UHGV virus genome: UHGV-1395224
Length of the DNA: 7,147 nucleotides
Strand: one strand, 5' to 3'
DNA from: a virus
The notes under the pieces were generated by a model. That model worked only from the letters and a program-made list of their open reading frames with translations. It was not told the DNA's origin and ran no database searches. Positions 6,829 to 7,147 of the stretch are shown in pieces (the first letter of the stretch is position 1; the number at the start of each line of letters is the position of its first letter). Position numbers and translations under genes: made by a program.

Positions 6829-7147
6829 TCAGTGGAGTTGGCGAACGATGCGGGCAACTACGGTGAGATGATAGACATAAATCGCCTTCACAATGGCGCT
6901 CTGCAGCTGCGTGTTCTGCAGCGTGTCGAGCATCTTCATCTGCTCCATCACGCTGTAAAACACATTTGCACCGCGGGTCTGCCCGTCCTCCACGGGTTCA
7001 AAAACGTGAATGAACGAGGCGCGCCCGCCGGGTAACTCACGGGGTATCCATGTCCATTTCTGCGGCATCCAGCCAGGATACCCGTCCTCGCTGACGTAAT
7101 ATCCCAGCGCCGCGCCGCTGTCATTAATCTGCACACCGGCACGGCAG
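6829..7147 (-). pseudogene. Truncated internal fragment of a lambda-family portal protein gene (gpB-like), fused to 17 unrelated codons before a stop
   Basis: Minus-strand translation from the window edge reads CRAGVQINDSGAALGYYVSEDGYPGWMPQKWTWIPRELPGGRASFIHVFEPVEDGQTRGANVFYSVMEQMKMLDTLQNTQLQSAIVKA, which I recognise from memory as an internal segment of phage lambda portal protein B. After AIVKA the frame continues IYVYHLTVVARIVRQLH and stops at 6829-6831. No start codon in the window; the track's M at 7134 is a GTG. This stretch is visibly more GC-rich than the neighbouring integrase region. Confidence 0.65.

Follow-up and report, generated by a model that had tools for sequence, protein, structure and literature searches.

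A truncated lambda-type portal gene beside an integrase gene as the probable attL of a PICI-type satellite inside its helper prophage

The stretch of DNA analysed here, 7,147 nucleotides of the UHGV virus genome UHGV-1395224 (referred to throughout as the window), ends at its right edge within a gene for a lambda-type portal protein, which is read on the minus strand and breaks off a short distance from an integrase gene. The locus raises the question of how a phage head gene came to be interrupted at the border of an island with its own integrase. A sequence-only reading had offered two answers, namely that a satellite-like island sits inside or next to the head gene of a defective lambdoid prophage, or that a deletion has fused the two. 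We conclude that the junction is very probably the attL of a PICI-type satellite of about 10.4–10.8 kb (a helper-embedded PICI, or HE-PICI), which has its own tyrosine integrase and is integrated in the portal gene B of a lambda-like prophage. The site, the att sequence and the element type are already known, having been published in 2023 by Tommasini, Mageeney and Williams (PMC10111431).

Translation of the minus strand over positions 6829–7146 gave CRAGVQ...LQSAIVKA, followed by IYVYHLTVVARIVRQLH and then a stop codon (TGA, 6829–6831); the stop-free translation before this tail is CRAGVQINDSGAALGYYVSEDGYPGWMPQKWTWIPRELPGGRASFIHVFEPVEDGQTRGANVFYSVMEQMKMLDTLQNTQLQSAIVKA. Positions 6881–7147 correspond to residues 189–276 of lambda gpB, with 98% identity at the amino acid level and 98.9% at the nucleotide level. 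BLASTP against lambda gpB (J02459) identified 89 of 91 identical residues over gpB residues 189–279, with the real similarity ending at A276, and the Pfam profile PF05136 (Phage_portal_2) matched over profile positions 152–242 with E = 7e-21 and 75.2 bits, against a cutoff of 32.9. The sequence-only reading had recognized the lambda family and the open frame to the window edge correctly, although the residues it had assigned to the segment (roughly 180–265) needed to be revised to 189–276. Its description of similarity being lost after AIVKA, with 17 unrelated codons and a stop at 6829 following, was confirmed by both translation and BLASTP. In megablast searches, positions 6876–7147 were matched by 80 phage records at 95–99.6% identity, lambda, HK630, 434 and DE3 among them, and the match to lambda B (J02459 3399–3670, 98.9%) covered this interval only; none of the 80 records had a match to the left of 6876. 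The match to lambda B is far above chance. The portal ORF in the window is a lambda-family fragment and, as it stands, no functional gene.

The breakpoint, previously put at about 6875, was found to lie in an 8-bp block at 6881–6888, and the bases at 6876–6880 still match lambda at four of five positions. To the right of this block, positions 6889–7147 are helper-prophage DNA, an internal part of gene B (gpB residues 189–274, minus strand) that continues off the window edge. To its left, positions 6829–6880 are island (attP-arm) DNA which, when read in the portal frame on the same strand, provides the 17 unrelated codons and the TGA. The step in base composition from GC-rich portal DNA to AT-rich integrase DNA that had been noted earlier is real, with a GC fraction that drops from 0.595 for the portal part to 0.46 for the intergenic att arm and 0.438 for int. 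An intact gene that ends naturally at 6829 was also considered and was rejected, as lambda gpB runs for 257 residues more and it is precisely at the att core that the similarity is lost. Site-specific integration has split the portal gene; the gene is not truncated.

The 8-bp block, ATCGCCTT, is the att core or identity block and the presumed region of strand exchange; on the coding strand it reads AAGGCGAT and falls in gpB codons 274–277. A short direct repeat at the two island ends had been proposed as a check, and the same 8-mer was indeed found at both ends of the islands of two complete genomes, CFSAN064035 (record L001) and A0 34/86 (record L002). The junction at the far end of the island reads ...GGCGGCATACATCGCCTT|TATGAAAAG..., and the int-proximal junction, as in the window, reads ...GATAGACATAAATCGCCTT|CACAATGGC.... 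The 3' half of the portal gene, which had been suggested as something to look for past the other end of the island, is directly there in both genomes. When the island and one copy of the core were deleted in silico, a 1,602-nt ORF of 533 residues was obtained, which is identical to lambda gpB at 531 of 533 residues in A0 34/86 and at 532 of 533 in CFSAN064035 and reads ...AIVKAMYAATIESEL... across the scar. The corresponding nucleotide junctions are ...GACATAAATCGCCTTTATGAAAAG... for the satellite attP and ...GCATACATCGCCTTCACAATGG... for the restored gene B. With the portal 3' half in place, the core duplicated and the ORF restorable, the first of the two earlier proposals was supported, that of an island inside a lambdoid prophage head gene.

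The region between the core and int contains direct repeats, which had been placed, along with the int start, within 150 bp of the junction. The int start codon (6678–6680) is separated by 200 bp from the core and by 148 bp from the stop of the portal fragment, and the repeats (6697–6752) are 130–190 bp from the core, so that the earlier figure was slightly generous. The repeat unit ATTTGCAATACACA occurs at 6697, 6727 and 6739, and its last two copies make up the doubled GCAATACA motif at 6731–6750. As arm-type repeats on the minus strand, these are a doubled GCAATACAcaTTGCAATACA at 6731–6750, the reverse complement of tgTGTATTGCantgTGTATTGCa, and a single third copy at 6701–6708. The int-proximal direct repeats of the sequence-only reading (6701–6750) are the doubled TGTATTGC arm motif, and represent att arm sites. 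A second doubled arm motif is present on the other arm of the island, at 5529–5548 of L002 (A0 34/86) and 10065–10084 of L001 (CFSAN064035). Reconstruction of attP places the two doubled motifs, measured from their near edges, at 134.5 and 78.5 bp from the core centre, for a total of 213 bp. The doubled motif tgTGTATTGCantgTGTATTGCa was reported to be unique to HE-PICI attPs, in which one copy is upstream of the centre, at 81±2 bp, and another is downstream of it, at 132±2 bp, and the total spacing observed here is equal to the published 81 + 132; the protein that binds the motif, be it Int, AlpA or some other, was left open by the authors (PMC10111431).

Based on Pfam, PHROG and NCBIfam matches, the gene order in the window is that of a Gram-negative PICI-type satellite. 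An integration zone (int, alpA) is followed by a dynamic zone (Bro-N network) and a replication zone (pri, ori), and in the complete relatives a late zone comes next, beyond the window. The island integrase (5439–6680, minus strand) is a tyrosine recombinase of 413 aa with an arm-binding domain (Pfam Arm-DNA-bind_3, Phage_int_M and Phage_integrase; PHROG 1), and it is followed by an 85-aa AlpA-family regulator (5180–5437, minus strand; Pfam Phage_AlpA, E = 7.5e-14) that is likely the excisionase. The dynamic zone (3921–5123) comprises a Bro-N anti-repressor-like gene (4545–5123, minus strand; Pfam Bro-N, PHROG anti-repressor), a small divergent Arc-like or YlcI-YnfO-like ORF of 57 aa (4248–4421, plus strand; PHROG Arc-like repressor), operator-like palindromes detected by a repeat search (4193–4251) and an Icd-like gene (3921–4118, minus strand; NCBIfam phage_ICD_like). 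Three small minus-strand ORFs with PHROG matches only (3320–3928) precede the replication zone (305–3315, minus strand), which was assigned from Pfam matches and the annotation of the homologous A0 34/86 island. It contains a DUF4222 gene (3016–3315), a D5_N/DUF5906 primase-helicase gene (1268–3019), an iteron-rich presumed ori (1026–1259), an 85-aa ORF (724–981) and an SSB gene (305–727), with all four genes on the minus strand. The integrase, AlpA and primase genes and the portal fragment are all on the minus strand, such that the key genes of the island are co-oriented with the late gene it interrupts, and the same co-orientation is seen in the annotated genomes CFSAN064035 and A0 34/86.

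The 2023 study in NAR Genom Bioinform mapped 491 helper-embedded PICIs to 14 sites, which are distributed over nine lambda-cognate late genes, with 97% of the islands in A, B, C and E, and includes a portal-site group, B:Phage_portal_2:241 (PMC10111431). For this group, written B_Phage_portal_2_241 in Supp. File 1, the identity block is given as 'aaggcgat' and 38 attL and 38 attR sequences are provided (PMC10111431). One published attL of 163 nt, Eco10269.11.B_Phage_portal_2_241, matched window positions 6782–6944 exactly (163/163) on the reverse strand, and the break of the Phage_portal_2 profile at 242 agrees with the site name (241). Because of the exact attL match, the shared identity block and the motif spacing, we assign the island to the published group, to which it is identical at the junction. 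It has in common with the group the attL, the identity block AAGGCGAT, the doubled TGTATTGC motif and the spacing, the int-alpA-Bro-primase layout, the co-orientation and, as judged from the complete-genome relatives, a size of ~11 kb. The junction shows no difference at all; the interior of this copy is a mosaic variant. An HE-PICI is an island inside one of its helper's late genes, and here the portal halves flank the island within the Nu1-A-W...C-D-E-tail operons. HE-PICI integrases form a single clade within the P4/PICI integrase group (PMC10111431), and the present integrase, with its Arm-DNA-bind_3, Phage_int_M and Phage_integrase domains, is presumably a member, given that attL and site are identical. 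No study following up the portal-site group came up in a search of the literature.

A set of 5,426 complete E. coli genomes was surveyed by megablast with window positions 6500–7147 as the attL query. The full int-portal (attL) junction was identified in 62 genomes, the attR junction in 59 and the integrase in 65. Among complete E. coli genomes, about 1% have this insertion in the portal gene, that of the probiotic strain A0 34/86 being one of them, which makes carriers of the portal site easy to find. At least 61 of the 65 carriers have an int gene of full length, at 97.5–99.9% identity, and alpA was annotated as intact wherever it was inspected. In every complete copy that was inspected or matched across the junction, the integrase adjoins the portal fragment. 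No other E. coli integration site was found for this integrase, and the two most divergent copies (97.5–97.8%) are also in the portal gene. The only int copy examined that had no junction was that of E. coli O121 strain 201805972 (L009 3150–4483), in which an IS1 truncates the int gene of the island and has taken the place of the attL/portal side, so that what is left of the island adjoins unrelated genes.

In both CFSAN064035 and A0 34/86, the lambda-like late operon proceeds through Nu1, A and W to a pseudogene annotated as a portal missing its C-terminus, which is followed by an island of 10.4–10.8 kb. Past the island is a pseudogene annotated as a portal missing its N-terminus, after which C, D, E and the tail genes follow. 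The islands have the order int, HTH/AlpA, Bro-N, YlcI/YnfO, Icd-like, small ORFs, DUF4222, primase or RepA helicase, SSB, major capsid, decoration protein, HTH and TerS, and the late zone formed by the last four genes lies beyond the window. These arrangements are of value for annotation, as "partial portal" pseudogenes that flank an integrase can be read as the two halves of one restorable gene and the int-proximal repeats as att arm sites. The sequence-only reading had described the prophage as defective, and this is not required: no other disrupted prophage gene was found in the 25.6-kb stretch of A0 34/86 that was inspected, but CFSAN064035 does have IS insertions. In the CFSAN064035 helper the major capsid gene E is split by IS621 and there is an IS1 near N (L001 5209–7513 and 37445–38142); this helper is defective independently of the satellite.

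Four independent assemblies, of which one is an NCBI genome contig (L004) and three are ENA or JGI metagenome contigs, are 100% identical to the window. On the portal side, L004 has lysozyme, Rz1, Bor, Nu1, A and W genes and then the interrupted portal ORF, which starts MKTPTIPTLL and is 293 codons long, made up of gpB 1–276 and the 17-codon tail. The ends of the four assemblies (L004–L007) agree to within a few hundred bases, with one break in the portal gene and the other just upstream of the island capsid gene, which is the expected pattern if other prophages in the same sample also carry the flanking DNA. These contigs and the window all end inside the island, and the attR of this exact copy is likely to be that of the islands whose int-proximal 2.7 kb is 99.4–99.5% identical to it. 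Those islands are the ones in CFSAN064035 and A0 34/86, which have this level of identity to the window over 4444–7147; deeper in they are ~88% identical or outright different, with only about 88% identity between window positions 1–3328 and A0 34/86. The best complete E. coli genome covered 93% of the window at 93.7% identity, and none had this exact interior. We interpret the copy in the window as a mosaic variant, in its replication and dynamic zones, behind a conserved int/att module. The replication module also varies between relatives, with a RepA-family helicase in CFSAN064035 (L001 14740–16155) versus the D5_N/DUF5906 primase in A0 34/86 (L002 10271–12022) and the window (1268–3019). 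Nearly identical int/att sequences combined with different replication modules point to modular mosaicism within one site group.

Could the junction have formed in some way other than by integration of a satellite? The window alone shows only the 5' part of a portal gene, followed by unrelated codons and a stop, and such an arrangement would also be produced if a deletion or illegitimate recombination had fused a chromosomal island to a decayed prophage remnant, with the portal gene permanently truncated and its 3' half lost. The IS damage in some of the host prophages is compatible with decay of this kind. Nonetheless we find this origin, the second proposal of the sequence-only reading, scarcely credible, and for the complete genomes examined it is refuted by the portal 3' half that abuts the other end of the island, by the 8-bp core at both ends and by the rejoining of the halves into a perfect 533-codon ORF. 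In addition, the junction recurs with a matching attR in 59–62 genomes. The chance that an assembler joined a prophage contig to an island contig is close to nil. Contigs of the window's length are short metagenome assemblies that are broken near both ends, which might have raised this suspicion, but the identical sequence is present in four independent assemblies (NCBI, ENA and JGI), and the junction is found in the published attL set and in 62 finished genomes, the latter of which refute a chimera.

A separate matter is whether the integrated island is still mobile, or is a fixed, domesticated relic that does not excise, has no satellite life cycle and only inactivates the prophage. Particles were not recovered even for 11capE, the HE-PICI that has been tested (PMC10111431), a search of a sequenced phage collection gave no match to island DNA, and several copies have IS damage. 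We still consider a relic unlikely, in view of the full-length int in at least 61 of 65 carriers, the alpA annotated as intact where inspected, and the fact that in neither of the two islands seen whole is a core or a doubled arm motif damaged. Also against it are the modular mosaics, in which identical int/att is combined with either a RepA helicase or a primase and which imply ongoing exchange, and the listing of helpers at different chromosomal sites, icd and 'R' (PMC10111431). The conserved int, the intact arm motifs and cores and the modular exchange argue that the island family is active, and some individual copies, such as the one in the IS-damaged CFSAN064035 helper, may be immobile relics. 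A role for the interrupted gene product itself, in which gpB 1–276 with its 17-residue tail (293 aa in L004) would be a dominant-negative poison of portal-ring assembly and brake lambdoid phages until excision, seems to us highly unlikely. Such a chimeric gpB' could be made from late transcription of the helper or of a superinfecting phage; however, the 17-codon tail is different in the Edwardsiella member of the portal-site group (PMC10111431), which speaks against selection on this tail.

For a satellite embedded in the portal gene of its helper, experiments on 11capE provide the closest model. After mitomycin C treatment, the 11capE composite excised and replicated and the satellite followed ~1 h later, with a 42–98% yield; infectious particles were not recovered by the authors (PMC10111431). 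For the portal site, the sequences show a recurrent anatomy in which the gene is split, the core is duplicated, the arm motifs are paired, island and late gene are co-oriented and the ORF is restorable. By analogy with 11capE, the portal gene would stay split until the satellite excises at induction. The Arm-domain tyrosine integrase would bind the TGTATTGC arm sites, and strand exchange would take place within the core AAGGCGAT. While the island is integrated the helper would have no portal protein and should form no procapsids. As with 11capE, SOS induction would cause the composite to excise and replicate, and helper late transcription would then run through Nu1-A-W-B' into int-alpA. Int and AlpA would subsequently excise the satellite and restore gene B, and only then could the helper and the satellite, the latter borrowing helper virion parts, be packaged. 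A promoter and terminator consensus scan of positions 6500–7147 found nothing, an int promoter included, which for terminators is a weak negative; with no terminator-like site in this interval, no barrier to read-through is visible.

If this proposal is correct, the satellite and its helper are coupled in cis, in that no helper heads could be made until the parasite leaves, and the parasite would be replicated and transcribed as part of the helper. This is an unusual form of phage-satellite control and was described in 2023 (PMC10111431). The element studied in that work, Eco567.11capE, is integrated in the capsid gene E (site E:Phage_cap_E:80) and is similar to the portal-site island in element type, proposed mechanism and late-gene co-orientation; it differs in its target (E, not B), its 10-bp identity block and its integrase subclade. 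It is also the sole HE-PICI with experimental data. Classical Gram-negative PICIs such as EcCICFT073 have the same int-alpA-(regulatory zone)-pri/ori-late zone arrangement, lambdoid helpers and a size of ~10–11 kb, but they occupy chromosomal sites away from the helper and interact with it in trans only, while the portal island is embedded in a gene of the helper. There is also a resemblance to "active lysogeny", as in the Listeria comK prophage and the B. subtilis skin element in sigK, where a prophage-like element splits a gene and its precise excision, at a defined stage, restores it. In those cases the gene is the host's, and here it is an essential structural gene of the helper phage.

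Two other satellite classes were considered and rejected. A capsid-forming PICI (cf-PICI) has a complete module of portal, protease, major capsid, head-tail connectors, TerS and TerL, and the CFSAN064035 and A0 34/86 islands carry only the major capsid, decoration and TerS genes of such a module, with no portal, protease or TerL gene of the island's own annotated in either. P4-like satellites have the core genes psu, delta, sid and epsilon and a cos site besides the alpha primase and integrase. The island shares with them only the D5_N/DUF5906 primase and the P4-type integrase architecture; none of these four core genes was present in the annotation of the CFSAN064035 and A0 34/86 islands or in the family scans of the window.

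Several further features of the island were observed. At 4193–4251, between the Arc-like/YlcI-YnfO-like ORF (4248–4421, plus strand) and the Icd-like operon, the sequence AATGGTAATTACCATGT, whose GGTAATTACC core is palindromic, occurs three times, and these repeats look like operators of a small repressor. Gene callers differ in this region, as a 153-aa minus-strand ORF (4127–4588) was called in three assemblies versus the antisense 57-aa ORF in the NCBI genome. The 153-aa ORF has no family match and the 57-aa ORF has weak Arc-like/YlcI-YnfO matches; the real gene is probably the short plus-strand ORF at 4248–4421. Just downstream of the primase gene, positions 1026–1259 contain dense GGTAGAGG(GC) iterons in both orientations around an AT-rich stretch, which presumably represent the replication origin of the island. 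An Rfam scan of the window gave only two sub-threshold matches, to eukaryotic miRNA families, in the hairpin repeats of this ori (1175–1257), and these were taken as chance. Lastly, in A0 34/86 approximately 800 bp of non-coding, repeat-rich DNA with short hairpins extends from attR to the last gene of the island (L002 5455–6264), with repeat units such as ...ATCAATGGGTTAG...CCCC(A/G)ATGGGGG..., and this segment could be a packaging or regulatory region.
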